This document shows, one piece after another, positions 4,895 through 61,895 of a stretch of 64,000 nucleotides of DNA (its first letter is position 1; every line of letters starts with the position of its first letter). Both the position numbers and the translations under genes were made by a program. The notes below the pieces were generated by a model. The model saw only the letters and a program-made list of their open reading frames with translations. It did no database searches and was not told the origin of the DNA. The stretch is from an uncultured Candidatus Saccharibacteria bacterium (GTDB taxonomy: Bacteria > Patescibacteriota > Saccharimonadia > Saccharimonadales > JAUPVS01). The stretch is from contig CAYPFM010000004.1 of the NCBI GenBank assembly GCA_964410185.1, positions 4,134 to 68,133 of the forward strand, written 5' to 3'.

Positions 4895-4969
4895 TATGTG
4901 ATGCTAGCTATGACTTTGTGTGTCCTGTTATAATCTGTTGAAAGCATAAACTGTCCGTTAGCAAACACT

Positions 4970-6220
4970 ATGCATACACCCAAGCGTACACCTACGAAAA
5001 AACCCCAAGAGGAGCCCGAAAAGCGGATCCATCGGCTTAAAAATCATCCGTTTGTTGTGCCTGTTGTCACCTTTTTAGCCCTGTTCATGATTACCATGCT
5101 GGGCTTTATTTTCGTTGGCGGCAAGACGGTCGGCCCAAGCGATAGCCATATTGTTCGTCTCTATGTCGATGGTCGGCAACAAACCTTACCAAGCCGAGCT
5201 GCCACCGTAGCCGATTTGTTGGCTGCTAACAAGATTGAGGTAGGGGAGCACGATGTTGTTGAGCCTGCTAAAGACGCTCAGATTACGGATGATAACTTTA
5301 GCGTCAACGTCTATCGCTCACACCCGGTTACCATTATTGATACCGATGCTAATGGCAAGAAGACCTCAGTTATCACCAATACGGCCCAGCAAGCTCCCGA
5401 AGCCATTGCCAAGCAGGCTGGCATCGAAGTTTTGCCAGAAGACAAAGTGACTGTTGCCCGTGCCGATGACATCACTCAAGAGGGTATTATTAGCCAGAAA
5501 CTGGTAATTGACCGTGCCCTACCAGTGAATATTAATCTATACGGAAGCCCGATAACCGCCCGAACCCAGGCCAATACTGTCGGCGAAGTTCTGTCCGAAA
5601 AGAACATCAAACCGCAGCCAACCGACACGGTTACGCCAGCTCTCAATACGCCGCTGACGCCTAATATGCAGATATTCGTCGTTGTCGTTGGCAAGCAGGT
5701 TATTACCCAGGAAGAAGAAGTTCCAGCGCCTGTCCAGACAATTCTTGACCCGTCACTAGCGAACAACAAAACGGTGGTACAGACCGAGGGTAGTCCAGGC
5801 AAGAAGCTCACCACCTATGAACTCCAGATGGAAAATGGCAAGGAAGTCAGCCGGAAGCTGATCCAGGAAGTTATTTCGGTTCAGCCGGTTACTAAGGTTA
5901 TCGCCAAGGGTACCAAGATTGTCGAGACCAGAATTAGCGGCGATAAGTCTGCCATTCTGTCGGCCGCCGGTGTGCCTATCAGCCAACAATCAGCCGCTGA
6001 TTTTGTGATCTCACGTGAGTCAGGCTGGAACCTAGCTGCCCGCAATAGCGGTGGTTGTTTAGGTCTTGGCCAAGCCTGCCCGGGTAGTAAGCTGGTTAAT
6101 GCCTGCCCTGACTGGGATAGTAACGCTGCCTGTCAGGTCGGCTTCTTTAATGGATATGCCAGTCGATATGGTGGTTGGCAGGGTGCCCAAGAGTTCTGGT
6201 TGCTGCACGGTTGGTGGTAG
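4970..6220 (+). CDS. membrane-anchored DUF348/G5 cell-wall protein with a C-terminal lysozyme-like (Apf/SLT-like) domain
   Basis: It has an N-terminal TM segment, DUF348-like repeats and a G5-like segment (VVQTEGSPGKKLTTYELQMENGKEVSRK). The C-terminus reads SRESGWN...GLGQ...YGGWQGAQEFWLLHGWW. Confidence 0.75.
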   Translation: MHTPKRTPTKKPQEEPEKRIHRLKNHPFVVPVVTFLALFMITMLGFIFVGGKTVGPSDSHIVRLYVDGRQQTLPSRAATVADLLAANKIEVGEHDVVEPAKDAQITDDNFSVNVYRSHPVTIIDTDANGKKTSVITNTAQQAPEAIAKQAGIEVLPEDKVTVARADDITQEGIISQKLVIDRALPVNINLYGSPITARTQANTVGEVLSEKNIKPQPTDTVTPALNTPLTPNMQIFVVVVGKQVITQEEEVPAPVQTILDPSLANNKTVVQTEGSPGKKLTTYELQMENGKEVSRKLIQEVISVQPVTKVIAKGTKIVETRISGDKSAILSAAGVPISQQSAADFVISRESGWNLAARNSGGCLGLGQACPGSKLVNACPDWDSNAACQVGFFNGYASRYGGWQGAQEFWLLHGWW

Positions 6221-6340
6221 GGGAGCTCCCAGTACTAGCATGAGCCTACGTCCTCGGCTGAAGCCTGCGAATGTAGACTCATACCAATACTGCTCGCTTA
6301 GTCTGCGGGCAGGTAGGATGACGATGGTATACTGCTGGGC

Positions 6341-6892
6341 ATGAAGTCTTTAGTTTTAGTAACCGGTAACGAAGGCAAGCTGCGCGAGTGGCAACGGTTG
6401 CTGCCCTCAAGCATTCACCTGGAGCCTTTCGATCACGACCTCCCCGAAATTCAAAGTCTTGATTTAGAGGCAATCGTGAGCGACAAGGCGCGCCGGGCGT
6501 TTGCAGAAGTCGGTAGGCCAGTTGTGGTGGAAGATATCTCAGCCGGCTTGATTGAGCTAAATGGCCTGCCCGGACCATTTATTAAATACTTCGAAAAGCA
6601 GCTGGGGAACGACGCCTTGCATGTCTTAGCGAGTAGCGAGTCAGCTGAGGCGATCGTTACCTGTTTAATTGGCTATTGTGACGGCAAGAATGACTTCACT
6701 GTTAGAGCCGAAATCAGTGGCACCGCCGTTTCGGCTCGGGGTGACAATGGTTTTGGCTTTGATAAGTGTTTTATGCCAAAGGGTCAGACTAAAACCTACG
6801 GACAGATGACACCCCAAGAAAAAGATGCCATCAGTCATCGAGCCAAGGGCATTAGCTTGTTTGTAAAGCGACTAAACGAGCTCCAGCTATGA
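6341..6892 (+). CDS. rdgB: non-canonical purine NTP pyrophosphatase (RdgB/HAM1 family)
   Basis: Motifs VTGNEGKLREW, GFGFD and SHRAKG are present. Confidence 0.85.
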   Translation: MKSLVLVTGNEGKLREWQRLLPSSIHLEPFDHDLPEIQSLDLEAIVSDKARRAFAEVGRPVVVEDISAGLIELNGLPGPFIKYFEKQLGNDALHVLASSESAEAIVTCLIGYCDGKNDFTVRAEISGTAVSARGDNGFGFDKCFMPKGQTKTYGQMTPQEKDAISHRAKGISLFVKRLNELQL

Positions 6893-7695
6893 CCGATCAG
6901 CCCTACGCCAAGAAATCGCTCGGCCAGCACTGGCTCAACGATCAAGCAACGCTTGAAGATATTTGTGATGCCGCTGAACTTTCGGCTGGTGACACGATCC
7001 TTGAGATTGGCCCAGGCCCGGGAGCACTCACCAAGCTGCTTGTCAAAGAAGTGAAGCAGGTGATAGCCGTTGAATTTGATGAGCGGTTCGCCAAGGCACT
7101 ACTCAGCAACGTCAATGCCAAGAACCTGTCGGTTACCCACGAGGACATTCTTAAATTCGACTTAACAAGTCTGCCAAAAGGCTACAAGGTGGTGGCCAAC
7201 ATCCCGTACTACCTAACCAGCAACTTACTTCGGGTGTTGAGTGAATCGACAAATCCGCCACAAACAATTGTGCTACTGATTCAAAAAGAAGTCGCTGAAC
7301 GAGTCGCTGCCAAGCCAGGAGACATGTCCCTGTTGAGTGTGAGCGTGCAGCTGTACTACCAGGCACAACTTGGGGTTAAGGTGCCAGCCCATTTGTTTAG
7401 TCCGCCTCCCAAGGTAGACTCGCAGGTGCTTATATTGAAACGCCGGGGCGGGGAGCTCTTCCCTGATGTGACGGAGCAGCAAATTTTAACAGTGGTCAAA
7501 GCCGGATTTTCGGCTCGCCGCAAGACGTTATTAAACTCGCTCAGTGCAGGGTTGCGCCAAGATAAAGCACAAATTATAGCATCGCTCCAGGCTGCCAACC
7601 TTGACCCAACGCACCGGCCCCAGGAGCTGAGCCTGGAAGATTGGCATCGGCTGACACAAGTACTTCTCCACAACTCCCCTACCCCAAACACTTGA
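6889..7695 (+). CDS. rsmA: 16S rRNA (adenine1518/1519-N6)-dimethyltransferase
   Basis: It carries LGQHWL and the SAM motif EIGPGPGALT. The start overlaps the rdgB stop by 4 nt. Confidence 0.9.
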   Translation: MTDQPYAKKSLGQHWLNDQATLEDICDAAELSAGDTILEIGPGPGALTKLLVKEVKQVIAVEFDERFAKALLSNVNAKNLSVTHEDILKFDLTSLPKGYKVVANIPYYLTSNLLRVLSESTNPPQTIVLLIQKEVAERVAAKPGDMSLLSVSVQLYYQAQLGVKVPAHLFSPPPKVDSQVLILKRRGGELFPDVTEQQILTVVKAGFSARRKTLLNSLSAGLRQDKAQIIASLQAANLDPTHRPQELSLEDWHRLTQVLLHNSPTPNT

Positions 7696-7740
7696 CGTGT
7701 TAAGTATTGGCCTGATAGACTACCTTCATAGGAGAGCGTA

Positions 7741-8202
7741 ATGCGCCCTAGTAATAAAATCGGCTTTCTCATCCAACACCTTGCCTTCTCGCTTGGCCGT
7801 ACCAACGACCAGGTTTTGCAAGAACGACTCGGGATAGGGTTTTCACAATTCAAACTTATGATGGTGCTGCAGAAGATGCCTCATATCCAGCAAAAACAAA
7901 TTGCGAGCGCGCTCAACCAAACCGAGGCCAGCATTAGTCGGCAAATTAAGCTCTTGCACGAGAAGAATTTGCTTCAAACGACCGTGAGCCCCAAGAATCG
8001 TCGGGAGCATATCACGACACTGACCGGTAAAGGAGTTCGCTATACGGAAGAAGCCCGCCGTATCTTAAACGACTATTATCAGCCTATGTTTGCCCAGCTG
8101 AGTGATAAGGATCAAGAACAACTCGCGCAACACCTCACGACGCTTCATGATGCCGTCTGTACAAGTAGTGGTGACATGTGCCAAAAATATATAAATGATT
8201 AA
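7741..8202 (+). CDS. MarR-family transcriptional regulator
   Basis: It has a winged-HTH-like segment, QKQIASALNQTEASISRQIKLLHEKNLL. It is adjacent to an MFS exporter. Confidence 0.8.
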   Translation: MRPSNKIGFLIQHLAFSLGRTNDQVLQERLGIGFSQFKLMMVLQKMPHIQQKQIASALNQTEASISRQIKLLHEKNLLQTTVSPKNRREHITTLTGKGVRYTEEARRILNDYYQPMFAQLSDKDQEQLAQHLTTLHDAVCTSSGDMCQKYIND

Positions 8203-9562: not shown

Positions 9563-9965
9563 GGGGCTGAATTTTAAGCTCGACGTTGGACTTTATCAGT
9601 TAGATCCCGCAGGTCGCTTACTCAGCGTTATAGGGTAACCAAGTATAGATGCAACATCTAAACTTCGCGATGCTAAGGTAGCTGTAGCAAACTTGTTTGC
9701 ACGCAGTGACTTTGCTTTCGCACTAGCTGCCTAATTCGTTAGACAGCCGTTTCGCAATCGATACCAGGTAGATTAACGAAGCGCTATATCATCTGGTTGC
9801 TTGCTCATACCTGACTCAAGATGAGTACTAAGACTATGAGTCTGCTCGATGCGTTGTTTGGTCTACTCATAGACGCATCGCTAAGACCAATAAGTAGACT
9901 ACACCTGTAGACGGCTAACAAAGATAAACTAGCGGACCCGGGGGCAGTACCCGGCAGCTCCACCA
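9563..9965 (+). ncRNA. ssrA: tmRNA (transfer-messenger RNA)
   Basis: The 5' GGGGCTG pairs with the 3' CAGCTCC-ACCA, including the G3:U pair. UCGACG lies near the 5' end. An internal tag ORF at 9687-9734 (GCA AAC ... GCT GCC TAA) encodes ANLFARSDFAFALAA. The 3' end aligns in layout with E. coli GGACGCGGGUUCAACUCCCGCCAGCUCCACCA. Confidence 0.88.
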
Positions 9966-11478
9966 TAAGAGACTTTTCGGTAAACGAAAGGTCTTTTTTG
10001 ATTGGCTCTAAGGAGTAAAGAGGGCTTATTCGAGGGGTGCCAACTTTTTGCTGGGAGTTAAACGATATCCCGCCTGGGAGTATGAGTTGTTGGCACCGCA
10101 CCCTCTCGTCATGATCAAGTTTCCACCAATCCTCGCGAAGCTTGTCGGTATAACTTAATCCAAAGTTCACGAAATCAAGCATACCAGCATCAAGATTATC
10201 CTTTGTGCTGATCACGTCTTTGACCTGATGGATTTCAAGTTTGATTTTGTCTATCTCTAGGCGGAGGTCTTGTTTGTATTCATGGTTCGCTCTTGCCATT
10301 TCCCGGACCAAACTAGACTTTTCTTCTTCGAGTGTGGCTACTTGTTTTTTGAGGGACTTGATTTCTTTAAGTGTTGCACTCTGTTTTTCTTTCCATACTA
10401 TTTCCAGAGCCTCGATAAAAGCTGACTGTTGTTTGCCAGTGTACTTAATTCTTGAGAGCCTTTCTGATATCTTTTCGTGTACCACATCGCGATGGTAGGC
10501 TTTCCTGCAAGTTCTACAGTGGTACTTATTGTAGTAGCGAGTCACCTTTTTTGCGTAGCCGTTATTCTTCCTCGATCCTGTAAACTTGCTATTTTCACCG
10601 CAATCTTCGCAGAAAAGAAGCTTGTTCATTGGAAACTCGGGGTTGTATTGCTTGCGTGGCCCTCTCAGTCTTACCTTGCCCGTAAACATTTCTACTAGCT
10701 GGTCATGATCATCCTGCGTAATCATTGGGGGATGCAAACCATTTTCGTTCCTAGCATTAACTTGCTTTTTGATTTCCACGATGCCTGCGTAGTATGGATC
10801 CAACAAAATGGCCCTGAACTTATCTGTTTTATATGGTGCGTGGTTGGTTGTAAACTCGCTTTGATTGAGACGCTTGAGTGCCTGAAGGGGAGTATATAAT
10901 CCACCGAGAACATCGTTGAATGCCCTTTGTAGGGGTTTAAAGGTTGTAGGATGAGGCTGGTGAATGCCAGGCTTCGAGCCCTTTTGATAACCAGGTTTTG
11001 GAGGCATGGTATAGCGACCTTCTTTTATGGCTGCACGGTGCCCCGATATTGACTTACGCTGCCGCTCCTCGTTACTGCCCTCAGCCTGCATGAACTTAGT
11101 GAATTTAAGCATCTTAGACATTAAATCGTCTCTGTTAAGACTCATATCGGATGCATACCAAACTTTTACATTCAAGAGGCTAAAAGTCACCTCATAGTAC
11201 GGGCCTTCGTACGCAGACCTCATGAATCGGTCTGGCTCATCAACAATCAAATACCTTACTCTTTTGTTTTGCTTACAAAAGTCGAGCATTTCTCTCAAGT
11301 CCTTTCGGGTTACGTTTGTCCCCGCTTTGCTCGAGACGTTGCCAGACCAGTTCTTGATTATCTCCACGTCTAATGCTTTGGCGGCATTACGAACAGAAAT
11401 CTCTTGTCGATTCAAACTATTGTTCTCTCGTTGCTCCGCAGTCGACACCCTACAAAGTGATATGGCTAGTTCGCGCAC
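9805..11478 (-). CDS. large serine recombinase (integrase), integrated-state form with 52 C-terminal codons antisense to tmRNA
   Basis: The N-terminal resolvase catalytic motif is LCRVSTAEQRENNSLNRQE. A Cys-rich zinc-ribbon segment reads CEDCGENSKF...YHCRTCRKAY. A long coiled-coil segment follows (LKKQVATLEEEKSSLVREM...). The start is GTG at 11478. Confidence 0.9.
   Translation of the reverse strand: MRELAISLCRVSTAEQRENNSLNRQEISVRNAAKALDVEIIKNWSGNVSSKAGTNVTRKDLREMLDFCKQNKRVRYLIVDEPDRFMRSAYEGPYYEVTFSLLNVKVWYASDMSLNRDDLMSKMLKFTKFMQAEGSNEERQRKSISGHRAAIKEGRYTMPPKPGYQKGSKPGIHQPHPTTFKPLQRAFNDVLGGLYTPLQALKRLNQSEFTTNHAPYKTDKFRAILLDPYYAGIVEIKKQVNARNENGLHPPMITQDDHDQLVEMFTGKVRLRGPRKQYNPEFPMNKLLFCEDCGENSKFTGSRKNNGYAKKVTRYYNKYHCRTCRKAYHRDVVHEKISERLSRIKYTGKQQSAFIEALEIVWKEKQSATLKEIKSLKKQVATLEEEKSSLVREMARANHEYKQDLRLEIDKIKLEIHQVKDVISTKDNLDAGMLDFVNFGLSYTDKLREDWWKLDHDERVRCQQLILPGGISFNSQQKVGTPRISPLYSLEPIKKDLSFTEKSLMVELPGTAPGSASLSLLAVYRCSLLIGLSDASMSRPNNASSRLIVLVLILSQV
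9956..9965 (+). repeat. attL core, AGCTCCACCA (left copy of a 10-bp direct repeat)
   Basis: An identical 10-mer lies at 14709-14718. It forms the tmRNA acceptor 3' strand and CCA end. Confidence 0.75.
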
Positions 11479-11492
11479 AAGAACCCCCGATC

Positions 11493-11714
11493 TTAATAAT
11501 CAAATTCAACATACCCCCTGCCTTCTGGGATTATCGACTGCTCTGAGTCAGTATTCAAGTCCTTGTACTCTGATTCATATCTCGAGAAGAGAAAGTTAGC
11601 CAACTCTAAAAGCTCTCGTTGGGTCAAGCTGTCTGGTGTTTTTTTGATAAATTGAATACGGTTTCCCGGTAATCGGGTATGGGGAGCAGAAGAGTCGGGG
11701 TCGTGACGAAGCAT
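11493..11714 (-). CDS. hypothetical 73-aa protein upstream of the integrase (candidate directionality or regulatory factor)
   Basis: The ORF ends 14 nt before the integrase start on the same strand. No motif was recognised. Confidence 0.4.
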   Translation of the reverse strand: MLRHDPDSSAPHTRLPGNRIQFIKKTPDSLTQRELLELANFLFSRYESEYKDLNTDSEQSIIPEGRGYVEFDY

Positions 11715-12199
11715 TTTTTAGCACCGAGTTAACGCCCGTTTCGTTTTTACTCGTTGCTTCGTAATGCTATTAGTTCGTCATGCGTCCTGGGCTTAATTGC
11801 ACTATAGCACCAAAGCAGATATTGTCAAGAGGCTAATGCTTATCCCGAGAATTTTCGTTCCGCGTTTACGCTAATACCCACTATGAGCTTACGAGACCCA
11901 CGTTTATACCTTAGAAGGTTAGGCTTTGTTAGTCCTAAAACATCCTTTTTCTTCCTTATAAATTCGACACTTTGTTAGGGCACTCTCGGTGGTTTCCGGC
12001 CGTTCGTATACGCCTTTGGTGTCAGTAGGCTGGCTTCCACGCATGGCCACGGGTTAAGGTTGAATATTCTGCTGTACGGTGGATGGGACCCGAACGGTTC
12101 TGGCCCCTGGGTGTCACCAGTCTTATTTTGTGTAATAATACCTCCAAGCGATGCAAGTCGCCCACGACCTAACCCGAGCAATCGGTATGGTCATGAAAT

Positions 12200-12241
12200 C
12201 TACGTGAATATTAATCCCGTCGTTGGGTTCTATTCACGTAG
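12200..12241. repeat. 11-bp perfect inverted repeat CTACGTGAATA / TATTCACGTAG with a 20-nt spacer
   Basis: It was read directly from the sequence. It lies about 90 nt upstream of the cargo membrane-protein gene. Confidence 0.6.
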
Positions 12242-12331
12242 TCGTAGCTGGAAACAGTTATGGTGGCCTCGGTCACGCCTCAGCGGCGGGTTTTTAATTG
12301 CCGCCTGCTGCCACTAACATTAGGAAGCATC

Positions 12332-12844
12332 ATGGAATTATTTACTACCCCGCCAAATTCACCCATACTTGCCGCGCTCATTATTGTTTATTTTCTGCTA
12401 GCAGCAGTAACAACTTTTGAAATAAGAGTAATTCAGTCACAAAAAAGTAAAGTTCAACAGGCCGGCCAGGTATCGTTGCCTGCTTGGACAGGTATTTTCG
12501 CTTATTTAATGTGGTTAGCCTGGTTGGCGATCTTTTTGTTGAACTGGCAACTTGCGCTGGTGGTTTTTGTACTCAAGTTCATTCTCAAAGTTTTGCCTGT
12601 TCTGGAAATCTTCGGTAGCTTCATCCTGACACCTATCAAACGCACACAACTCGGTACAAATGACGGAGAAAGTAGTGACGAAAGCCGGAATCGTTTAATC
12701 GAAAACTTGGAGAGCATTAAGAATGGCAAAACTTCGCCGGAGGCAAAACAGCGTTTTTCGTCTAAGTTAATCAAGGCGTCGCCATTGAGCGAAGAAGAAA
12801 AGCTCCAATTACTCGAACGGCTTGAGAGCGATTATAAGCGGTAA
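12332..12844 (+). CDS. hypothetical membrane protein (about 3 TM segments plus a charged C-terminal tail), element cargo
   Basis: ATG at 12332 is preceded by aggaag. The hydrophobic segments are ILAALIIVYFLLAAV, IFAYLMWLAWLAIFLL and LALVVFVLKFIL. The track start at 12260 would place hairpins inside the coding sequence. Confidence 0.6.
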   Translation: MELFTTPPNSPILAALIIVYFLLAAVTTFEIRVIQSQKSKVQQAGQVSLPAWTGIFAYLMWLAWLAIFLLNWQLALVVFVLKFILKVLPVLEIFGSFILTPIKRTQLGTNDGESSDESRNRLIENLESIKNGKTSPEAKQRFSSKLIKASPLSEEEKLQLLERLESDYKR

Positions 12845-13034
12845 AAGACCTTCGAGAGGGTAAATAGGCATGCCGTTTTTTTAAATGGCTTACAGGGCCT
12901 TACAAACAGTCTGATGGCATATAGCACTCGACATATGAGAGTGCCAATAGTATAATGGCGGTATTAAGTGGAGGCCCTCGGTTTACTACCCCTGGTCACC
13001 ACCTGATGACCATTATTTAAGCGAGGGTAATATC

Positions 13035-13604
13035 ATGAGAGATCAATTCTTTAAGGTACCGCTTCATCACTATAAGTCGGACCTTCTTGACAATATTAGT
13101 CAGGCGATTAGGCGGACAAACGCAAAGGAGCTTGACGACGATTTTGGCAGGGAGGCCATTATGCGACATAAGCTCGACAGTGTAGCCATAGACTGGGACA
13201 CGCTCCAGATGCTTCCTGACCACCGTGAGGAAAGAGTAATCTCTGAAGGTATGCTTGGCCCCGAAGAACAAGTGATACCAGTTTACACTTTCGAAGTAAA
13301 ATTTACAGGGGACAGACGCTTATTTGGCATCAGTCCAAGCACTAGTCGGGTATGGACTTTTCACGCAGATGTCACCGGTGACACGATCTCTTTCCAGATT
13401 AGAGGCGCCGATAAAGCCAAGCTGGAACAAGTAAAGGCCAATCTGACCCACGACATTGGGCAGCTTAACCAGGAGATAGCTGGTTTTAACAATGAGCTTG
13501 AACAAGTTGTGACCTCGGGGATCGAGGCGCGTAAAAAAGTACTAGCCGAAAACAACAAGGGCCAAGATGTCTTCGGTGTTCCTATTAAAACGACGAAAGA
13601 ATAA
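13035..13604 (+). CDS. hypothetical 189-aa protein, element cargo
   Basis: This is a long ORF with normal amino-acid composition and a C-terminal coiled-coil-like segment. A TATAAT box lies about 80 nt upstream. No family was recognised. Confidence 0.65.
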   Translation: MRDQFFKVPLHHYKSDLLDNISQAIRRTNAKELDDDFGREAIMRHKLDSVAIDWDTLQMLPDHREERVISEGMLGPEEQVIPVYTFEVKFTGDRRLFGISPSTSRVWTFHADVTGDTISFQIRGADKAKLEQVKANLTHDIGQLNQEIAGFNNELEQVVTSGIEARKKVLAENNKGQDVFGVPIKTTKE

Positions 13605-13610
13605 GCTGTA

Positions 13611-14501
13611 ATGGATAAGCCGGAGGAAGAATTAAAAAAGGCTTTAGAGAGTGGTGATGGTCCCCCAATCTTAAGATTTATTATTGCAACTTTGGCTGGC
13701 GCCTCATCGGCTGCGGGGCAAGCGATCGGTGCCAAAGTTGGAGGTGCTGCTGGCGCCCAGGCAGGTGAGGTTGTAGGTAACGTCGCTGCGGGTGCTATCG
13801 GGGGTGTTCTGAGCGCCAGTTCCGAGAAAGACCAGAGGAGAATCAACGAAATAGTACAGATGTGGCTAAAAATGCAGTCTGACGAAATAAAAGAGATAGG
13901 CACTACTATGTTTGAGGTGATGGCTCGCCTGGATTTAGAAGATGAGCGAGTCCGAGAACGCTTAGAGAGCCCTGAGTACCTAAGGCTCATTAAGAAGTGC
14001 TTTCGTGACTGGTCTGCTGCCGAGAGTGAAGAAAAGCGTGTCTTAATCAGGAATCTGCTAATTAATGCTGCCGGTGCCCACATCACCACAGATGACGTAG
14101 TAAGTTTATTTGTTACGTGGATCGATAACTACTCCGAAGGTCATTTTAAAATAATTCGAGCAATCTACAACCATGACGGGAGTACTCGCAGGGATATCTG
14201 GCTCCGCATGAATGAGACAACTGTGTTGCCACGAGAGAACTCCCCAGAGGCCGATTTATTTAAGCTGCTTGTTCAGGATCTCAACATGGGCCACCTGATT
14301 CGTCAGCATCGGCCAGTTGATCATGCTGGTAACTTTATAAAGCAACAGCCAATACGTCGTGGGAGCGGGGGAGGTCAGGGCTTTACCTCGGCCTTTGATC
14401 AGGCAAAGCGGTATGAACTTACCGGGCTTGGAGAGCAGTTTGTGCACTACACTATGTCAGAGTTTGTTAAGAAAATTAGCGCTCCAGCAACAGATCAGTA
14501 A
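13611..14501 (+). CDS. hypothetical 296-aa protein with an N-terminal Gly/Ala-rich glycine-zipper segment, element cargo
   Basis: It starts 6 nt after the previous stop. The segment FIIATLAGASSAAGQAIGAKVGGAAGAQAGEVVGNVAAGAIGGVL has a GxxxG-type periodicity. Confidence 0.65.
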   Translation: MDKPEEELKKALESGDGPPILRFIIATLAGASSAAGQAIGAKVGGAAGAQAGEVVGNVAAGAIGGVLSASSEKDQRRINEIVQMWLKMQSDEIKEIGTTMFEVMARLDLEDERVRERLESPEYLRLIKKCFRDWSAAESEEKRVLIRNLLINAAGAHITTDDVVSLFVTWIDNYSEGHFKIIRAIYNHDGSTRRDIWLRMNETTVLPRENSPEADLFKLLVQDLNMGHLIRQHRPVDHAGNFIKQQPIRRGSGGGQGFTSAFDQAKRYELTGLGEQFVHYTMSEFVKKISAPATDQ

Positions 14502-14587
14502 CTTGGTCGGGATGTCTTGACCGGAGTGTTTCCTCTAGCCTGGAGATGCGGTGATCAGCACTAGGCTTAAGGGGCTCAGTACGTACC

Positions 14588-14718
14588 TCAAGGACGGGGG
14601 TGATACCCGTTGAGCACATCCTTGTTCTTATGCCTTGACCAATCTACGGCCAGGATATTCTTCCAGCGCCCCTGTTCTTGTGTGAGCCGGTGCCAATTAT
14701 CTCGCACAAGCTCCACCA
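14588..14718 (-). other. displaced 3' coding segment of the serine integrase (joins in frame on excision)
   Basis: The minus-strand frame reads VELVRDNWHRLTQEQGRWKNILAVDWSRHKNKDVLNGYHPRP-stop. Its codon phase relative to the 10-bp core is identical to that at attL. Confidence 0.7.
14709..14718 (+). repeat. attR core, AGCTCCACCA (right copy of the 10-bp direct repeat)
   Basis: It is identical to 9956-9965. The flanks diverge immediately on both sides. Confidence 0.75.
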
Positions 14719-14916
14719 AGAAAAATGACTCATCGCAAGATGGGTCTTTTTTCTTGGCAGGGAATATGTGTCGGGTACTGCCCGAGAGGGTGAGAACCGC
14801 CACGGGCAGTTCTCACCCCATGAATACAGTTACCTCTGCGATTTGGCTACTATTTGCTTATGCTTGCAATGTCCCAAACCTCAATCTATAGTGCCACGAA
14901 AGCAAGGAGACGTACT

Positions 14917-15438
14917 ATGCCGCAAATTGATAAAATTGAACTAGTTGGGGATGCTTTTTATATGGCTTGCCCGTCCTATGAAGAAGCAGGAAAGAGCATT
15001 GCTAAAGAAAGTCCTGACAAGTATTTGACCATAGTGAAACCCTTTATGCCCTCTGTACTCGGTTGCTTGGTAGAGGTAGATGGTCAACAATCAATCAGGC
15101 TAGTTGGAGAACAAAGAGCCGGTGTCGTCCCACGCCATATGCATGGCCTACAAGAAGGCGTTACGGCTTCCACATTATCTTCGTTGGAAATCGACTTAGT
15201 TGCGCATGTTGAACCAAGGGACAGCGAGTTGCTAGATAGGGGTTTAGCCTGGGTAGCCGTTGGAGCCGAAGCAAAGCCGCTCTTTAAGATGGGTATCCTG
15301 CCACATTCTGGTGCCACCGCTAGTGAAATTACTGAACGTTTAATAATTGCAGAGTTTCGGGCAGTTGAAATGATAAATGGCGTTCTAAATTCAGACCCAC
15401 TTGCTCCGTATTCACAGAAATATTCCGCCGCCGCGTAA
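14917..15438 (+). CDS. hypothetical protein
   Basis: ATG at 14917 is preceded by aaggag at a 7-nt spacing. No motif was recognised. Confidence 0.6.
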   Translation: MPQIDKIELVGDAFYMACPSYEEAGKSIAKESPDKYLTIVKPFMPSVLGCLVEVDGQQSIRLVGEQRAGVVPRHMHGLQEGVTASTLSSLEIDLVAHVEPRDSELLDRGLAWVAVGAEAKPLFKMGILPHSGATASEITERLIIAEFRAVEMINGVLNSDPLAPYSQKYSAAA

Positions 15439-15525
15439 GCAGGGCGAATACCCCCGAGGTACTACTAGTTTCTTTCGGTTTTCAGCGCAAGAAGGGTCCT
15501 TTTCTTTGAAAAACTTGACGAAAAG

Positions 15526-15534
15526 TGGTATAAT
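15526..15534 (+). promoter_or_regulatory. extended -10 box TGGTATAAT
   Basis: The exact sequence TGGTATAAT lies 7 nt upstream of ATG 15542, giving a leaderless-type layout. Confidence 0.55.
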
Positions 15535-15541
15535 AATACCT

Positions 15542-16273
15542 ATGGAAATGGTTCGTCATACGGTTATACCAGACTCTCATGGTCAATATGAGCTGGTTAG
15601 CCGCATGATCGATCATCACTTAGACATGACCGACCACTTCTTGTTCTTGGGTGATGTTCTCAACGGGCCTAATAGTGCTAAGTTGATTCAGTTGATTCGT
15701 TCGCTCGGGGAGCGAGCGACGACCATCGTCGGTAACCATGAATGGGTCGCCCGTAATGCCCTGAGCCATTCGATTGACCCAATGGTGGCAGTCTGGCGGG
15801 ATGAAATCTGGCCAGGTTACGAGGAGGATACGCTGCAAAGTTATGGCATTCATCCAACCGGCAAGTGGTCGCGTGATGCCCAAGCATTGCAGGAAGTCAT
15901 GGCCGAAACAGGCGACTTGGACTGGCTACACAGCTTGCGTCCATACTTTGAAACCGACCAATTTATTGGTGTGCACGCTGGACCGGAACGAAACTTTGCT
16001 TGGGCAGAGCAGGCTGCTGCCATGGATCTGCTGATTGGCTACGACGCGCGGCTGCATGATGAACCCGCCCCAATCTTTGATGGCCGACTGGGCGCGATTA
16101 AAGATGTGCCAGAGCTGGTTGATGCACGCACATTTGTTACTGGACACCTTCACCTGACGCTTCCGGCAGAGCAACGCCGTGCTGAGCGCAAGATCGGGCT
16201 GGCATCACCGCTTAACAGGGGCGCACCACTCTACGTGTGGCAGAGTGACCAAGACCGTATTTACGCGCATTGA
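15542..16273 (+). CDS. metallophosphoesterase (calcineurin-like phosphatase family)
   Basis: Motifs IPDSHG, GDVLNGP, GNHE and GHLH are present. Confidence 0.8.
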   Translation: MEMVRHTVIPDSHGQYELVSRMIDHHLDMTDHFLFLGDVLNGPNSAKLIQLIRSLGERATTIVGNHEWVARNALSHSIDPMVAVWRDEIWPGYEEDTLQSYGIHPTGKWSRDAQALQEVMAETGDLDWLHSLRPYFETDQFIGVHAGPERNFAWAEQAAAMDLLIGYDARLHDEPAPIFDGRLGAIKDVPELVDARTFVTGHLHLTLPAEQRRAERKIGLASPLNRGAPLYVWQSDQDRIYAH

Positions 16274-16308
16274 CATGCACGCAAAACATTATATAATCAA
16301 AAGTAGTT

Positions 16309-31281: not shown

Positions 31282-33442
<2,161 letters not shown>

Positions 33443-33450
33443 GAATTTAT

Positions 33451-33774
33451 ATGACCATACGACAAGACGCTAGTACGGGCAAAATGGTTGATGATGGTAA
33501 GCCCTCGGCGGCAGTATCGCCAGACGCCGAGAACCGGATGCACATCAAGGTCTATTCGCCGTTTCAGACGTATTTCGATGATGTGGCCGAGAGCATTTCG
33601 GGAACCAACGAAACCGGCAACTTTGATATCCTCCCCAAGCATCACAACTTCATAACACTTCTGAGTGCTGGTGACTTAGTGATTCGCACCCCGACCGACA
33701 AGCGAACCATCAAAATCTCTCGAGGCATGATGCACGTTAAGGCCAATAATGTGATTGTTTTTTTGGACGTTTAG
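33451..33774 (+). CDS. atpC: ATP synthase F1 subunit epsilon
   Basis: It follows the beta gene. The motif GNFDILPKHHNFITLL is typical of epsilon. Confidence 0.75.
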   Translation: MTIRQDASTGKMVDDGKPSAAVSPDAENRMHIKVYSPFQTYFDDVAESISGTNETGNFDILPKHHNFITLLSAGDLVIRTPTDKRTIKISRGMMHVKANNVIVFLDV

Positions 33775-33788
33775 ACGCCTGCATAATA

Positions 33789-33842
33789 GTGCCCATTGCT
33801 ACGGCTTCGACCTCGAGGGTCTGCAGATGTAGCAATGGGCAC
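33789..33842. repeat. conserved-core hairpin element, copy A
   Basis: A 13-bp perfect stem (GTGCCCATTGCTA / TAGCAATGGGCAC) encloses the 28-nt core CGGCTTCGACCTCGAGGGTCTGCAGATG. Confidence 0.8.
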
Positions 33843-33904
33843 CATCATCCAGGCTAAACATCCATAACACAAGCAAAGGAAGGGTGGTAAAACAGGGGTG
33901 GATT

Positions 33905-33913
33905 TGCTATAAT
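33905..33913 (+). promoter_or_regulatory. extended -10 box TGCTATAAT
   Basis: It lies 9 nt upstream of the mnmA ATG at 33923. Confidence 0.55.
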
Positions 33914-33922
33914 TTACAACAT

Positions 33923-34978
33923 ATGGCAAAGCAAAAGGCCCAAAAAGTTTATGTCGGTTTGAGTGGCGGTGTCGATAGCTCGGTAACCGCGGCTTTGCTA
34001 GTGGAGCAGGGCTACGAGGTCACGGGCGTGTATATGAAGAACTGGAGCCAAGACCTACCTGGCTTTGCCTGTCCGTGGAAGGACGATTATCAGGATGCAA
34101 AGCGGGTGGCTGTTCAGCTCGGTATTCCGTTCAAGATGTATGATTTTGAAAAACAATATCGTCAAAAAGTTGTCGACTATATGGTGGCCGAATATCAGGC
34201 GGGCCGAACGCCAAATCCTGATATTATGTGCAACCAAGAGGTAAAGTTTAAAATATTTCTAGAGACAGCCCTGGAGGATGGTGCCGATCTAATTGCCACT
34301 GGGCATTACGCACGCACTCGGGAGGGCCAGCTGCTAACAGCCGCGAATGTCGATAAGGACCAAACCTACTTTTTGTACCGAGTCACACAAGAGGCTTTGC
34401 AACATAGCCTGATGCCGATAGGTGACTTTAAAACCAAGGACCAAGTGCGGGCGCTCGCTAAAAAATTCAAGTTGGTCACAGCCGCCAAAAAGGACAGCCA
34501 GGGTATCTGTTTTGTTGGTAAGGTAGGTATCAAAGAATTCTTGTTGCACGAGCTTGGTCCACAAAAGCCAGGCGCGATTGTTGACGAACAAGGAGTTACG
34601 ATTGGCCAGCACGACGGCGCTATCTTTTACACCATTGGTCAGCGGCACGGCTTAGATGTAGGTGGTGGTTTGCCCTACTATGTGGTTGGTAAAGATATGG
34701 ACAAGAACGAAGTTTATGTGACCACCAACCTGGACGATGGCAAGTTGTGGCACAAACAGCTGATCCTTAAAGACGTACACTGGATAAATGGGGCCCCAAC
34801 AGCAAAGAAACTACAAGTCCGAACCCGCTATCGGGCACCATTGGTGGATTGCACCATCTCGGTTTCACCAGACACCGTAGCGGTTTTGCTAACTGATGAG
34901 GTTCGGGCGATTACGGCTGGCCAGTCTGCCGTCTTCTATGACGGTGATCGGGTAGTGGGCGGCGGAATTATAAGCTAG
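33923..34978 (+). CDS. mnmA: tRNA-specific 2-thiouridylase
   Basis: It carries the PP-loop GLSGGVDSS. The length and motifs fit MnmA. Confidence 0.9.
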   Translation: MAKQKAQKVYVGLSGGVDSSVTAALLVEQGYEVTGVYMKNWSQDLPGFACPWKDDYQDAKRVAVQLGIPFKMYDFEKQYRQKVVDYMVAEYQAGRTPNPDIMCNQEVKFKIFLETALEDGADLIATGHYARTREGQLLTAANVDKDQTYFLYRVTQEALQHSLMPIGDFKTKDQVRALAKKFKLVTAAKKDSQGICFVGKVGIKEFLLHELGPQKPGAIVDEQGVTIGQHDGAIFYTIGQRHGLDVGGGLPYYVVGKDMDKNEVYVTTNLDDGKLWHKQLILKDVHWINGAPTAKKLQVRTRYRAPLVDCTISVSPDTVAVLLTDEVRAITAGQSAVFYDGDRVVGGGIIS

Positions 34979-35501
34979 TGATTTGATCGAGATCGGTGAC
35001 AAGCCGATCGCCTTCGACGATAGTTTGGCTAGGAATTTCGAGATCGTAGTTGATCTCGGTTCGGGTGCCAAGCGCAACTTTATCACCAAGACTGGCTCCC
35101 AGTAAGACGATGCTTTCATCGCCAATCTGGCAGTCGCTACCAACCTGTACGCCATGATCTAGCTGAACATTATCACCTACAAGGACGCCAGCACCGATAA
35201 CAACAAAGTTACCGAGGCGCACATTCTCGCCAATCTGCGTACCGGGACCAATCCGCTCGACGTTGCCCACCCGACTCTGATGAGTGAGCGTGATGGTGAC
35301 ACCACGATCGATTGGGCGCTCACCTGTTGCGAATTGCTGTCGTTGTTGCAGCTCTTTGTTTATACAATGCCCGGCAATTTCCCGAACCAGCGCGCGCAAT
35401 AAAAAAGCACTGTCAGTTTGTACTAGTAGGCGATCGGTAGGCCGTTCGAGGCTATCTAAAGAAATAAAAAATCCTTTCGGTTCAACCAGAAAGGACGTCA
35501 T
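34968..35501 (-). CDS. hexapeptide-repeat (left-handed beta-helix) protein, acyltransferase-like
   Basis: It has hexapeptide repeats of the [LIV]-G-x4 type (IGENVRLGNFVVIGAGVLVGDNVQL...). A GGGGAGGA SD lies before the ATG at 35501. Confidence 0.7.
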   Translation of the reverse strand: MTSFLVEPKGFFISLDSLERPTDRLLVQTDSAFLLRALVREIAGHCINKELQQRQQFATGERPIDRGVTITLTHQSRVGNVERIGPGTQIGENVRLGNFVVIGAGVLVGDNVQLDHGVQVGSDCQIGDESIVLLGASLGDKVALGTRTEINYDLEIPSQTIVEGDRLVTDLDQITSL

Positions 35502-35658
35502 GTGCGATATCCTCCCCGGTAAACGGGCTAGGTGGAGCACCTTATCTTTCGATAGGTTGCCGGCAGGTCATCAAGCTAGATCTCTCGCTGCACTCTTTAT
35601 ATGGTTAGGTTGTAAAGGTCGAGATTTAGTATAAACCAATCGTTAATTATTACAAATC

Positions 35659-42126: not shown

Positions 42127-42321
42127 CGTTCTAAAAATGGTAAAAACGACCAAAATTTGCTATAATGCTGCCTACAACTGTTTATGTGAATTATCACTGT
42201 AAACGGTTGTTTTATCTGGAGAATCTTTATTAGTAGCAATACAAACGTCTTAGTCCAAAAACGAGTTATTCGTTTTAGAGATTACTGGCGAATCAGTACC
42301 TACAAGCGACTGTTTAAGCAA

Positions 42322-43389
42322 TTGCCTAAACGGTCGCGTAAGCGTGCAGTTCGGTATGGTTTGCTAGCCGCTAACCTCTTGTTGTTGGCTGTCGTGGCTG
42401 GCTTTGTCATAACTGGTCGTCAGACCGTAAGTGGCGGCCGTGTTTCGAACCAAGCGGCCGCGGTTGGTAGCTCGTCAAGCACTGTTGTTAACCCGCTCGA
42501 CCAACTGTCGTCAGCCGATATTGCCGTGCACATTGCCCGGGCCGCCAATCTTGATGAGTCCCAAGCAGTTACCAACAAGGCCGATACCGTTAATGCGCAA
42601 CAAGTTGTGAGCTCGGCGAACCAGAGCGTCATCGCCAAGCCTCAGGTTGTCTCTGACGGCCTAAAGTCACGTAAGGATATCCAAACCTACACCGTGGTGG
42701 CCGGTGATACGGTTTCTAGCGTCGCCACCAAATTTGGCATTACTTCAGACACTATCCGCTGGTCTAATAACATTAGTGGTGAAAACCTGACTGTTGGCAG
42801 TCAGATCCTCATCTCTCCTGTTAACGGTATTGTTTACCAGGTCAAGGCAGGGGACACAGCTGATGCCCTCGCTTCAAAATATCACTCCAACGTTGATTTG
42901 CTGATCGCCATGAACGACGCCGAAATCGGTGGTTTGCCAGTCGGCCAGTATATTATCATTCCTGGCGGATCACCTGCCACCGTTACAACCGCTCGTCTGA
43001 CGCCAGCCAACACAGCCCTATCTGGTGGCTTTGCTTGGGGCGGTTATGCTGCCGTTTACGGAAGCAACGGTTATGATTATGGTTACTGTACTTGGTGGGC
43101 TGCTAACCGCCGCGCTCAAGTTGGTCGTCCGATTCCAAGCAACTTAGGGAATGCCAGCACCTGGAAGGTCTTGGCTCAACGAGCTGGCTTTGGTGTCGGC
43201 AATGCTCCTGCTGCCGGGGCGGTTATTTGGACGCCACCACGCGATTATTATGGTCACGTTGGCTTTGTTGAGGCTGTAAACGCCGACGGTAGTGTGACTG
43301 TTTCCGAAATGAACGTCTATGGATGGGGCCGCACAAACACCAAGACTTTGTCTCCAGCAGAAGCCGCAGCATACTCCTACATTTACTAG
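42322..43389 (+). CDS. LysM-repeat / CHAP-domain peptidoglycan hydrolase
   Basis: It has two LysM-like repeats (YTVVAGDTVSSVATKFGI and YQVKAGDTADALASKY). The CHAP-like C-terminus reads GYCTWWAANRR...GHVGFVEAV. The start is TTG and is uncertain. Confidence 0.75.
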   Translation: MPKRSRKRAVRYGLLAANLLLLAVVAGFVITGRQTVSGGRVSNQAAAVGSSSSTVVNPLDQLSSADIAVHIARAANLDESQAVTNKADTVNAQQVVSSANQSVIAKPQVVSDGLKSRKDIQTYTVVAGDTVSSVATKFGITSDTIRWSNNISGENLTVGSQILISPVNGIVYQVKAGDTADALASKYHSNVDLLIAMNDAEIGGLPVGQYIIIPGGSPATVTTARLTPANTALSGGFAWGGYAAVYGSNGYDYGYCTWWAANRRAQVGRPIPSNLGNASTWKVLAQRAGFGVGNAPAAGAVIWTPPRDYYGHVGFVEAVNADGSVTVSEMNVYGWGRTNTKTLSPAEAAAYSYIY

Positions 43390-52700: not shown

Positions 52701-52777
52701 AGCATATGAGCAGTCGTGAACGCTGCTTCTGCAGGCCGTTAGGCCGAAGTCGCAGCGTGAAGTATTGCTCATATGCT
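52701..52777. repeat. conserved-core hairpin element, copy D (divergent)
   Basis: A 12-bp outer stem (AGCATATGAGCA / TGCTCATATGCT) and a 7-bp inner stem (ACGCTGC / GCAGCGT) enclose the core TTCTGCAGGCCGTTAGGCCGAAGTC. Confidence 0.75.
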
Positions 52778-52810
52778 GCTATACTATAGGTTACAAACCA
52801 AGGAGGAACA

Positions 52811-53482
52811 GTGTCTACCCAACAGGATATTTCGATTACATTACAAAACCGTGAAGCTTTGGGCAAGGCCGTCAAACAATTACGTAAAGATGGTCAGGTG
52901 CCAGCTGTTATTCATGATCACGGAAAGCCGTCGATTCATGTTATGGCTGCCTATGTACCAATGTTCAAGGTCTATCGTGAAGCCGGTAAACACCATCCCG
53001 TCCACCTAACAGTTGATGGCAAGAAGTATCTCGCCATTATCCGCGACGCTGATTTTGAGCCTCGTAAGAACATGCTTCGTCATGTTGTTTTTAACGCCAT
53101 CGAACAGAATAAGCCAGTTGAAACCGAAGTCCCAATCATCTTTGAAGGTGATGCTGAGGCCGAGAAGGTTGGCTTTATGGTTCTACGACAGCTCGATAAC
53201 ATCGAACTCAAGGCTCTACCGAAAGATTTGCCCGACCAGGTCGTGGTTGATATTTCTGGCCTGGCCGCAGTCGGCGATAAACTGCATGTATCTGATATCG
53301 TCGTGCCAACAGGTGTGACTATTCTGACAGACGCCGAACATCCGGTTGCTATGGTGGATGAGCCACGCTCACTGGCCGCTGCTCAAGCCGAAGAAGATGA
53401 AGCTGCTGCTGCCGAAGCCGCCGAAGCTGCGGGCGAAACCGCCCCAGCTGCTGACAACAAAGAAGCTTCCGAAGACGAGTAA
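52811..53482 (+). CDS. rplY: ribosomal protein L25/Ctc family
   Basis: It starts at GTG after an AAGGAGG SD. It carries LRKDGQVPAVIH. The C-terminal tail is acidic and Ala-rich. Confidence 0.85.
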   Translation: MSTQQDISITLQNREALGKAVKQLRKDGQVPAVIHDHGKPSIHVMAAYVPMFKVYREAGKHHPVHLTVDGKKYLAIIRDADFEPRKNMLRHVVFNAIEQNKPVETEVPIIFEGDAEAEKVGFMVLRQLDNIELKALPKDLPDQVVVDISGLAAVGDKLHVSDIVVPTGVTILTDAEHPVAMVDEPRSLAAAQAEEDEAAAAEAAEAAGETAPAADNKEASEDE

Positions 53483-60471: not shown

Positions 60472-61695
60472 ATGTACCACCACTTCTCTTCGGAGTTCTT
60501 TGTGAGGAACCGCGCCCGTCTGCGCGAACTGTTTGTGGGAACCGCGCCAATCGTCCTCACTGCTAATGGTGTACTACAGCGTAACAGCGACGTAACCTTT
60601 CCGTTTCGCCAAGACAGCAGCTTCTGGTATCTAACCGGCATTAATGATCCGGGCGTGATTCTTGTGATGGACAAGGGGAAGGAATATCTCATTCTGCCCG
60701 AGCAAGAGAGCTACTTTGATATTTTTCACGGTGGCTACAACCAGGAGCAACTGCGCACAATCTCTGGCATCACAACAATCTACAATCAAGCCGATGGCTG
60801 GAAGCAGCTCGGCAACCGTCTTAAGCGAGTCAAGCACGTTGCAACGCTTGCGGCCTCACCAGCTTATGTGCAGCAACTCGGTTTTTATGCTAACCCGGCC
60901 CGTGCTCAGTTAATTACCCGCATCAAAGAAGAACGGAGTGATATCGAACTTCTGGACTTGCGACCGCAACTGTCATTGATGCGCGTCATAAAGCAGGCCC
61001 CTGAACTGGCGGCAATTCAAGAAGCCATTGATATTACTGTAAAGGGCCTCAAGTTTACCCAAAAACACACCTACGCCTACGAATATGAGGCCGAAGCCGC
61101 TCTGAGCACCATATTCCGCAAAGCCGGCGCTCGCGGTCATGGTTTTAGCCCGATTGTTTCGGCTGGCGCTCGTGCCTGTGCCCTCCACCAAGAAACTAAC
61201 GACGGTCCAATTGGGCCCAAGGAGCTGCTGACCCTGGATGTTGGCGCTGAAATTGACAATTATACGGCTGATATCACGCGCACCTACAGCCAGGGCAAGA
61301 ACCCGACCAAGCGTCAGCGTAATGTGCATGCTGCCGTATTGGCCGTACAGGAGTACGGATTCGGGTTGATCAAGCCTGGTGTAACTATCCGCGATAATGA
61401 AAAACTAGTTGAGCACTACATGGGTGAAAAACTGCGCGAACTCGGTCTGATTAAGACGATTGACCGTGACAGCGTGCGTGAATTCTTCCCACACGCCACA
61501 TCACATTACCTTGGTTTGGACGCCCATGACGCCGGCGACTATGATCGCCCACTCGAGCCAGGCATGGTGTTGACGGTTGAGCCAGGAATTTATATACCCA
61601 AAGAGGAAATTGGCGTTCGGATTGAGGACGACCTGCTGGTAACCAAAGATGGCTACAAGGTCCTAAGCGGTCGTCTGTCTCGCGATATCGCCTAA
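60472..61695 (+). CDS. pepP: Xaa-Pro aminopeptidase (M24 family)
   Basis: It carries DVGAEIDNYTADITRT, HATSHYLGLDAHD, VEPGIY and RIEDD. Confidence 0.85.
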   Translation: MYHHFSSEFFVRNRARLRELFVGTAPIVLTANGVLQRNSDVTFPFRQDSSFWYLTGINDPGVILVMDKGKEYLILPEQESYFDIFHGGYNQEQLRTISGITTIYNQADGWKQLGNRLKRVKHVATLAASPAYVQQLGFYANPARAQLITRIKEERSDIELLDLRPQLSLMRVIKQAPELAAIQEAIDITVKGLKFTQKHTYAYEYEAEAALSTIFRKAGARGHGFSPIVSAGARACALHQETNDGPIGPKELLTLDVGAEIDNYTADITRTYSQGKNPTKRQRNVHAAVLAVQEYGFGLIKPGVTIRDNEKLVEHYMGEKLRELGLIKTIDRDSVREFFPHATSHYLGLDAHDAGDYDRPLEPGMVLTVEPGIYIPKEEIGVRIEDDLLVTKDGYKVLSGRLSRDIA

Positions 61696-61696
61696 A

Positions 61697-61772
61697 GGCT
61701 AGAAACGATTCCTCAGACTGCGGCTTCGGCCTCATGGGCCTGCAGATGCAGTCTGAGGAATCGTTTCTAGCC
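61697..61772. repeat. conserved-core hairpin element, copy B
   Basis: A 24-bp perfect stem (GGCTAGAAACGATTCCTCAGACTG / its reverse complement) encloses the core CGGCTTCGGCCTCATGGGCCTGCAGATG. It begins 2 nt after the pepP stop. Confidence 0.85.
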
Positions 61773-61789
61773 TTGCGCAATACAAGAAT

Positions 61790-61867: not shown

Positions 61868-61895
61868 GTGCTACAATAGTACTTAAGTTTATATT

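Follow-up and report, generated by a model that had tools for sequence, protein, structure and literature searches.

A family of long intergenic hairpins with a common tip and unrelated stems in Saccharibacteria and distant bacteria

Five hairpins with a common tip in the window

Five hairpins of one family were identified in the window (the whole 64 000-nt stretch of DNA that was analysed). They are long and intergenic and have an asymmetric tip of 26–28 nt in common, on stems that are unrelated to one another. The strand that reads CAUCUGCAG...CGAAGCCG is referred to below as the M strand, and the strand listed for each copy is that of M.

Hairpin A: 33764–33864 (about 100 nt), minus strand; core 33802–33829; covariance model score 65.5 bits
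Hairpin B: 61695–61774, minus strand; core 61721–61748; 27 perfect bp; 67.6 bits
Hairpin C: 61785–61872, plus strand; core 61815–61842; 58.9 bits
Hairpin D: 52701–52777, plus strand; core 52726–52752, variant UU...UC; 53.8 bits
Hairpin E: 6230–6292, minus strand; core 6249–6273 (CAUUCGCAGGCuucaGCCGAGGACG); diverged fifth copy; 15.7 bits, E = 0.03

Hairpins A, B and E lie directly 3′ of plus-strand genes (atpC, pepP and a G5-domain gene, respectively) with M on the minus strand, and C and D have M on the plus strand and ends that abut the extended −10 box of the next gene. Hairpin A separates the stop codon of atpC (33774) from the promoter of mnmA, TGCTATAAT (33905–33913), and in its outer stem the last atpC codons and the stop codon pair with an inverted copy downstream. 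Hairpin B begins at the pepP stop codon and C stands back-to-back with it, the 3′ end of C adjoining the extended −10 box TGCTACAAT (61869–61877) of the following gene. Hairpin D lies between a divergent dedA-like gene (start 52654, minus strand) and the rplY promoter TGCTATACT (52777–52785), and E lies between the G5-domain gene and a Ham1-family gene.

Four of these cores had been reported in an initial annotation made from the sequence, and they stand where it placed them: the pattern CTGCAGNCC-N3-6-GGNCGAAG matches the window four times (A–D only) against 0.00 matches expected from 100 shuffles. The predicted minimum-free-energy hairpins A–D have z-scores of −7 to −12, and no inverted repeats in the window are longer than those that flank these four cores. 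With 47 genuine copies as its basis, a covariance model recovers A–D at 54–68 bits and adds E, where it matches 6238–6284 (minus strand; CAUUCGCAGGC-uuca-GCCGAGGACG), a variant also found at L123:986–1031. Hairpin D has a second, symmetric loop (GUGAA/GUGAA) and a run of U6 on the strand opposite M. The arms of the five window copies have nothing in common beyond 3–5 bp next to the tip, and compared with the rest of the window the stem sequences gave no match, either as ‘spacers’ or as copies of other loci.

The earlier observation was therefore real but understated, as it had missed the strand asymmetry, the fifth copy, the spread across phyla and the origin of some outer stems by inverted duplication of the flanking gene end, all described below. 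The long clamping stems exist but are longer than had been given (B, for example, has 27 perfect bp), and the statement that they share no sequence holds between most copies but not within subfamilies, which share 5–16 bp and a second loop. The position at operon borders in intergenic DNA was also correctly described except for D, which lies between divergent promoters and not after a gene.

Anatomy and covariation of the tip

Members of the family are intergenic hairpins of 60–130 nt that can be recognized by the tip, for which the consensus is C-AU-CU-GCA-[GRCC-loop-GGYC]-GA-AG-CC-G. Reading from the base upward, a C-G pair closes the outer stem and is followed by a 2 × 2 (or 3 × 2) loop AU/CC, which in the Firmicutes-type tip is replaced by AAU/CC. 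Above this loop are two pairs, C15-G36 and U16-A35, then a GCA/GA loop, and the apex is a G+C stem of 3–7 bp with a cap that is mostly GNNA and otherwise a C-N-N-G-A pentaloop.

The covariation that the initial annotation had read from four inner hairpins is borne out by the larger set. In the 47 genuine copies the inner-stem pair R21-Y31 is G-C in 36, A-U in 10 and G.U in one and is never unpaired, nor is it ever A.C, although the search pattern permitted A.C. For the outer stem the covariation score was 0.371 as compared with 0.143 in shuffled data (none of 500 shuffles scored as high). Within the tip, U16-A35 has changed to C-G in copy E and in L123:986, C15 has changed to U in L190 (giving a U.G pair), and column 24-28 alternates between C-G, G-C and U-A among copies with a triloop. 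The additional copies found by the model differ in the inner stem (GGUCC/GGAUC, GGCCC/GGGCC, 3-bp stems and also G-R-[CCGCC...GGCGG]-G-C with a purine–purine mismatch) and leave AUCUGCAG and CGAAGCCG unchanged, although it should be noted that the apparent invariance of the tip is partly accounted for by the retrieval of copies with an exact pattern. Subfamilies have the first 5–16 stem bp and a second GUGAR/GUGAR loop in common; in the ‘D-like’ subfamily this symmetric loop lies 6–7 bp below the tip at fixed spacing. In the Firmicutes type about 70 nt are conserved (GGAAGACAUUAAAGCGAAC-AA-tip-CC-GUUCGCGUAAUGCCUUCC) within a G+C-rich outer stem, and a U tract often comes next.

The M strand is kept foldable

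The 5′ arm of each element was aligned to the reverse complement of its 3′ arm and transition mismatches were counted per strand. As a transition mismatch is G.U on one strand and A.C on the other, these counts tell on which strand the ability to fold is maintained. G.U pairs in the window-like CPR group numbered 68 on the M strand and 14 on the other, 27 elements leaning toward M and one the opposite way (P = 2 × 10^−7), and in the window alone the count was 11 to 0. The bias tracks the orientation of the tip and not the strand of the genome. Predicted folding energies (M versus opposite strand, kcal/mol) were −64.6 versus −50.3 for A, −59.9 versus −61.2 for B, −55.5 versus −41.0 for C, −47.3 versus −40.1 for D and −38.3 versus −19.6 for E, whose opposite strand scarcely folds, so that M is the more stable by 7–19 kcal/mol in four of the five copies. 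Firmicutes-type copies showed no M-strand wobble bias (8 versus 14, counts that are non-independent and dominated by one inherited position). In the lineage of the window, then, it is the M strand that stays foldable.

Promoters, U tracts and neighbouring genes

All copies of the family are intergenic. Where an element adjoins the 3′ end of a gene, M is antisense to that gene in about 15 out of 20 clear instances (from crude ORF calls), A, B and E among them. Twelve extended −10 promoters were found within about 120 nt of an element, six on each side of M and all directed outward; none of the 12 points into a hairpin, so that transcription of M in the window's lineage is taken here as an assumption. 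CPR-type copies show no consistent enrichment of a U tract, with averages of 3.1 T in the 10 nt that follow the M-strand hairpin and 3.7 A in the 10 nt that precede it. The absence of a U tract noted initially is thus true of the M strands in the window, where a terminator scan found none at A–D, but not of the opposite strand of D with its U6. A U tract does lie 3′ of M in L115, L062 and L129 and in several copies of the Firmicutes type, L161 among them, and those U-tract copies that could be resolved (L062, L115 and the Firmicutes-type L161 and L173) are in sense orientation after a gene. Together with a copy within an Alicyclobacillus pre-rRNA (see below), these U tracts and sense positions show that M is transcribed in some lineages.

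The promoters themselves are of the extended −10 type (TGNTAYAAT), at 33905–33926, 61869–61898, 52777–52813 and about 6321–6343 in the window and also in L184, L188 and L190. Some of the −10 elements lie only 7–10 nt before the start codon (mnmA, Ham1), which suggests that the mRNAs from these promoters may be leaderless. Upstream of mnmA a block AAAACAGGGGTRRATTTGYTATAAT (33889–33913) is conserved in L181–L185 and L187, with or without a hairpin, to a degree that exceeds the need of a −35 region.

Gain, loss and growth at orthologous loci

The AtpD and PepP homologues assign the clade of the window to Saccharibacteria/Saccharimonadales. Syntenic loci of relatives were fetched via these homologues, and three loci (atpC-mnmA, pepP and dedA-rplY) provided both filled and empty orthologous sites. 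The atpC-mnmA spacer is filled in the window, L181, L182 and L164, with identical orientation in all four lineages, and empty in L187 (89% AtpD identity; ...gacgttTAG-ccgcctaatgatgtgg-taaaacagggg), L184, L185 and L183. Filled sites read, in order, left flank; inner stem, tip and inner stem; the left flank again as an inverted copy; and the right flank, which is ancestral. The inverted copy of L181 and L182 takes in 24 nt or more of atpC coding sequence (gtgattgtctttctagacgtttaa pairing with tcaacgtccaggaagacaatcac), and since the coding sequence is ancestral the far arm must be the derived copy; this pattern would be the signature of palindrome growth by fold-back (template switching). L181 and L182 have DNA that is 85% identical, yet at this one site their tip variants and inner arms differ. 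At the pepP locus, L188 and L190 have the stop codon followed immediately by CTACAAT, where the window has an insertion of 176 nt (B + C) with arms unrelated to the flanks. The dedA-rplY locus is empty in L188 and L189, and the window and L190 have orthologous hairpins there, with arms about 75% identical that differ by compensatory double changes (caTAtg/caTAtg versus taATtg/caATtg) and by new U.G pairs on the M strand.

Orthologues of A agree in orientation, as do those of D. The conflict between the phyletic patterns of these two hairpins requires at least one loss or independent gain. At some empty sites nothing separates the stop codon from the −10 box of the gene that follows, and degenerate remnants at empty sites were not found even with filters off. 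Since empty sites have no hairpin of any kind, whole hairpins (arms and tip) are gained, and the suggestion of a small element inserting into the loops of existing hairpins has to be given up. Comparison of filled and empty sites at the three loci revealed no target-site duplication and no conserved ends, and no near-identical copies were seen at different loci. The family is thus gained, lost and expanded by lineage. In its stems the pairing is constrained and the sequence otherwise free to evolve, and a stem can become longer when the flank is duplicated in inverted form.

Distribution of the family

About 65 long hairpins with this tip were found in metagenomic contigs of Saccharibacteria/CPR and in one Clostridia-type MAG. 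Of 59 metagenome loci retrieved, about 45 have long hairpins. Clear hairpins occur in two low-G+C Saccharibacteria MAGs (L062 and L115), on three contigs of the MAG ‘Eubacterium sp. UBA3782’ (L101, L104 and L110) and, as one clear copy, in Alicyclobacillus fastidiosus (L004). This last copy (4855–4903, minus strand) lies between the genes for 23S rRNA (4986–7930, minus) and 5S rRNA (4721–4837, minus), and as it is on the same strand as the rRNAs it is sense within the pre-rRNA. A scan of genome contigs with a loose pattern gave 118 matches, most of which are chance matches in high-G+C coding DNA. The covariance model and search of related sequences that had been proposed at the outset therefore describe a broad family, with copies that stay intergenic and covariation that extends beyond the first four.

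No genuine copy was found in IMG/VR, GenBank phages or PLSDB plasmids, and literature searches by sequence string and keyword found no description of such a hairpin family. The earlier statement that it could not be matched to a known RNA family was upheld by Rfam 15, which at gathering thresholds (window and 16 loci) reported only tmRNA, LOOT, SAM and tRNAs. Scans of the elements at E ≤ 10 gave only sub-threshold microRNA precursors and potC, the latter at 22.9 bits against a cut-off of 44 and through stem letters only.

Copy number varies, with five per 64 kb in the window as against 0–1 per approximately 20 kb in relatives, and Ga0209023 contigs have up to three copies in 2.7–5 kb. Adjacent CPR-type pairs have the order (−)(+) in five of five cases, and Firmicutes-type copies are sometimes found in tandem arrays with a period of 87–89 nt. 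In L126 and L145 neighbouring hairpins have common inner arms and tips that are flipped relative to each other.

Some copies adjoin genes for stable RNAs (L168 12412–13195; L125, L156 and L160); one is about 100 nt past an array of seven tRNA genes and another directly adjoins the 3′ terminus of an opposite-strand tRNA gene. Short contigs often terminate at these hairpins. Short-read assemblies seem to break there, and the family is therefore probably under-represented in MAGs. L180, a 918-nt Logan contig (SRR12404947) identical to window positions 32914–33831, ends inside hairpin A.

Comparison with known systems

We rate the family as closest to REP/BIME elements or to hairpin terminators, what is new being the design of a conserved apex on a free stem and the occurrence of one tip across phyla. 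Like REP, BIME and REPIN elements, these are abundant intergenic hairpins at gene ends that occur singly, in inverted pairs and in arrays, with lineage-specific expansion, long persistence and a strand-specific single-stranded form. The REPs of any one genome, however, have a conserved stem (GTAG/CGTC head) and a variable loop, in contrast to the present family with its unrelated stems and a tip conserved even across phyla; the present hairpins are also far longer (60–130 nt) and no RAYT was seen with them, there being no Y1 (HUH) RAYT among 20 window ORFs or the Pfam hits precomputed for syntenic loci totalling about 200 kb. As in intrinsic terminators, a G+C-rich, tetraloop-capped hairpin lies just 3′ of a stop codon, with a U tract in L115, L062 and several Firmicutes-type copies, but intrinsic terminators have stems of 5–12 bp and no conserved asymmetric 26-nt tip, as against 20–50 bp here, and most copies here are antisense to the upstream gene and lack a U tract on the M strand in the window.

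Some substrates of RNase III-type enzymes are recognized through the apex, such as the AGNN hairpins of yeast Rnt1p and those with the apical motifs read by Drosha/DGCR8. As an analogy only, they resemble the family in having a conserved apex, free stem sequence and a long double-stranded stem, but their motif is unrelated to the present tip, and we know of no bacterial enzyme of this type that recognizes an apex. The ssoA origins of rolling-circle plasmids carry a conserved CS-6 loop and an RSB site on a variable long hairpin. They too are long hairpins with little conservation save for short unpaired or apical motifs and with one working strand, but they are plasmid-borne and single-copy, whereas the present family is chromosomal and multi-copy with no plasmid match.

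Comparison of copies confirmed that the conserved apex and variable stem, as first proposed, are the reverse of what is found in REP, MITE or attC repeats. A MITE is rejected because there are no terminal inverted repeats or target duplications at the three filled/empty loci, an integron attC site because attC conserves the R and L boxes at the base and varies at the apex, and a REP defined by a conserved stem because the arms of the five window copies are unrelated. An intrinsic terminator defined by a U tract is rejected for the window copies, such tracts occurring in some relatives only. The hammerhead ribozyme (CUGANGA ... GAAA, three-way junction) is rejected since the tip (CUGCAG-stem-CGAAG) is two core nt short, lacks A15.1 and forms a two-way junction, and Rfam gave no hammerhead match at E ≤ 10. 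A kink-turn (three-nt bulge and tandem G.A) appears to be excluded, as neither strand has the arrangement with GA on both sides, and so does a sarcin–ricin loop (AGUA/GAA), because the change of U16-A35 to C-G would mean a Watson–Crick pair where A.A is needed. SRP domain IV, a T-arm and look-alikes of dif/Xer sites were rejected by sequence logic and covariation. A restriction-site role for CTGCAG was also rejected, as the site is not depleted in number (11 observed, 14.9 expected).

Possible nature of the element

The reading that we favour, tentatively and with somewhat less than even confidence, is that of a REP-like, ‘tip-defined’ structured repeat which, as an RNA hairpin, works at the boundaries between transcription units, the tip being a fast-folding nucleus and probably the binding site of a factor. 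Action as RNA is suggested by the purine-rich non-canonical loops, the GNNA caps, the tolerance of G.U pairs, the pre-rRNA copy and the copies with U tracts. Whole hairpins are gained where only a very short spacer separates a stop codon from the extended −10 promoter of the next gene, and according to this proposal the element, as a very stable and fast-nucleating RNA hairpin, might there block or insulate against read-through and spurious divergent transcription and might mark or protect RNA ends. The non-Watson–Crick loops of the tip would be a putative docking site for a conserved host factor, candidates being RNA polymerase, its accessory factors or an RNA-processing enzyme. With a U tract, as in some lineages, the element would be a complete intrinsic terminator, and in the window's lineage it is a hairpin without a U tract, the M-strand transcripts of which would have to arise from read-through or from divergent initiation at neighbouring −10 boxes. 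We infer that it spreads in a REP-like manner. Of the ideas put forward initially, that of a new structured RNA or DNA motif, or apical module on terminator-like hairpins, is the best fit, U-tract copies being present in low-G+C Saccharibacteria and in the Clostridia-type MAG.

A reading of the family as a mobile element in ssDNA is retained because orientation is mixed and the U tract is missing, and the ssDNA/REP-like and DNA-site readings are both retained because M is mostly antisense and D lies between divergent promoters. The first of these, that the hairpins are selfish, non-autonomous REP/REPIN-like repeats mobilized as ssDNA of M polarity by a putative tip-recognizing enzyme, with incidental effects on transcription, is a realistic possibility, though doubtful. 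It accounts well for the presence/absence polymorphism at three orthologous loci with the conflicting patterns of A and D, for the lineage-specific expansion with its high density and Ga0209023 clusters, for the back-to-back pairs, the arrays of 87–89 nt and the nested subfamilies (the flipped pairs of L126 and L145, with common inner arms), and for a strand-specific fold irrespective of local gene direction and a 6:6 orientation relative to promoters. Against it, the 20 window ORFs and the syntenic-locus Pfam hits include no HUH/Y1 transposase or reverse transcriptase, and the sole recombinase seen is the serine recombinase of an island next to the tmRNA gene. There are also no target-site duplications, conserved termini or near-identical copies at separate loci, the family is absent from the IMG/VR, phage and plasmid collections, and one copy is in sense orientation inside an rRNA operon. 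An identical tip across phyla would in addition fit a conserved host partner better than a co-evolving transposase.

A bolder variant, which we consider rather unlikely, would be an ‘apex-first’ repeat in which a self-folding module of about 26 nt seeds hairpins at new intergenic sites, the stems coming from local fold-back copying and the single-stranded form being read by a factor conserved in Saccharibacteria and Firmicutes, a logic distinct from that of REPs, MITEs, attC sites and terminators.

It is improbable that the element works as a site in DNA, through cruciform or hairpin extrusion or a duplex-binding protein, as a topological or roadblock insulator between transcription units. Such a role would suit the placing of D in an untranscribed gap between divergent promoters, the hairpins directly against −10 boxes and the back-to-back pairs, which resemble opposed polar sites, and an asymmetric centre of 26 nt would stabilize long palindromes in DNA. 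A cruciform or duplex should not, however, prefer G.T over A.C on one strand, and the counts were 68 and 14; moreover, purine-rich non-canonical loops and GNNA caps are typical of RNA, and other lineages have U tracts 3′ of M and, in one case, a sense copy within a pre-rRNA.

Precursors of small RNAs, with the tip as the handle for a ruler-type double-strand-specific endonuclease and the variable stems as the product, seem very improbable. The conserved apex on a variable 20–50-bp stem, the second loop of the D-like subfamily at a fixed 6–7 bp from the tip and the fact that Rfam yields only sub-threshold look-alikes of microRNA precursors would agree with this, but the stems match nothing else in the window and nothing in the phage collection, some merely copy the end of a neighbouring gene, and we know of no candidate nuclease. 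An artefact of assembly or amplification (inverted chimeras) or a chance repeat, which might be thought of because short contigs often end at the hairpins, is excluded by the finding of the tip in dozens of independent assemblies including one complete isolate genome, by the expectation of no copies by chance in the window and by the hairpin at one locus across four lineages.

Saccharibacteria/CPR genomes are tiny and have almost no intergenic DNA, yet in the lineage of the window hairpin inserts of 80–180 nt are found at several operon borders and are kept at the same loci across divergence to roughly 75–85% nucleotide identity. The identical tip in Saccharibacteria, the Clostridia-type MAG and the Alicyclobacillus rRNA spacer points to an unrecognized RNA (or ssDNA) recognition module and partner. 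If the element is a termination or processing signal it would shed light on the delimitation of transcription units in organisms with few canonical terminators, and if it is a replicator a conserved apex with a free stem would be a new architecture for bacterial repeats. In either case the family is a definite candidate for inclusion in Rfam and for Term-seq in Saccharibacteria, now that these have become tractable.

Other features of the window

The window also contains the following features.

9563–9965, plus strand: tmRNA gene (Rfam, 67.5 bits)
9805–11478, minus strand: large serine recombinase ORF
12166–12276, plus strand: LOOT RNA
14716–14757 and 14788–14818: canonical terminators (hairpin plus T)
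35504–35605, minus strand: SAM-I riboswitch
42306–42337: near-perfect palindrome

ARAGORN found no tmRNA. The 3′ end of the tmRNA gene is overlapped by the recombinase ORF, beyond which are about 5 kb of ORFs without Pfam hits, the LOOT RNA and the two terminators, and the region 9563–16300 looks like an island integrated at ssrA. The SAM-I riboswitch scored 44.5 bits against an Rfam threshold of 44.4 and lies upstream of the minus-strand ORF 34968–35540 (hexapeptide-repeat-like in syntenic loci), the called start of which overlaps it. The palindrome, of 32 nt (GCGACTGTTTAAGCAATTGCCTAAACGGTCGC), overlaps the start of ORF 42322–43389 and is unrelated to the hairpin family.
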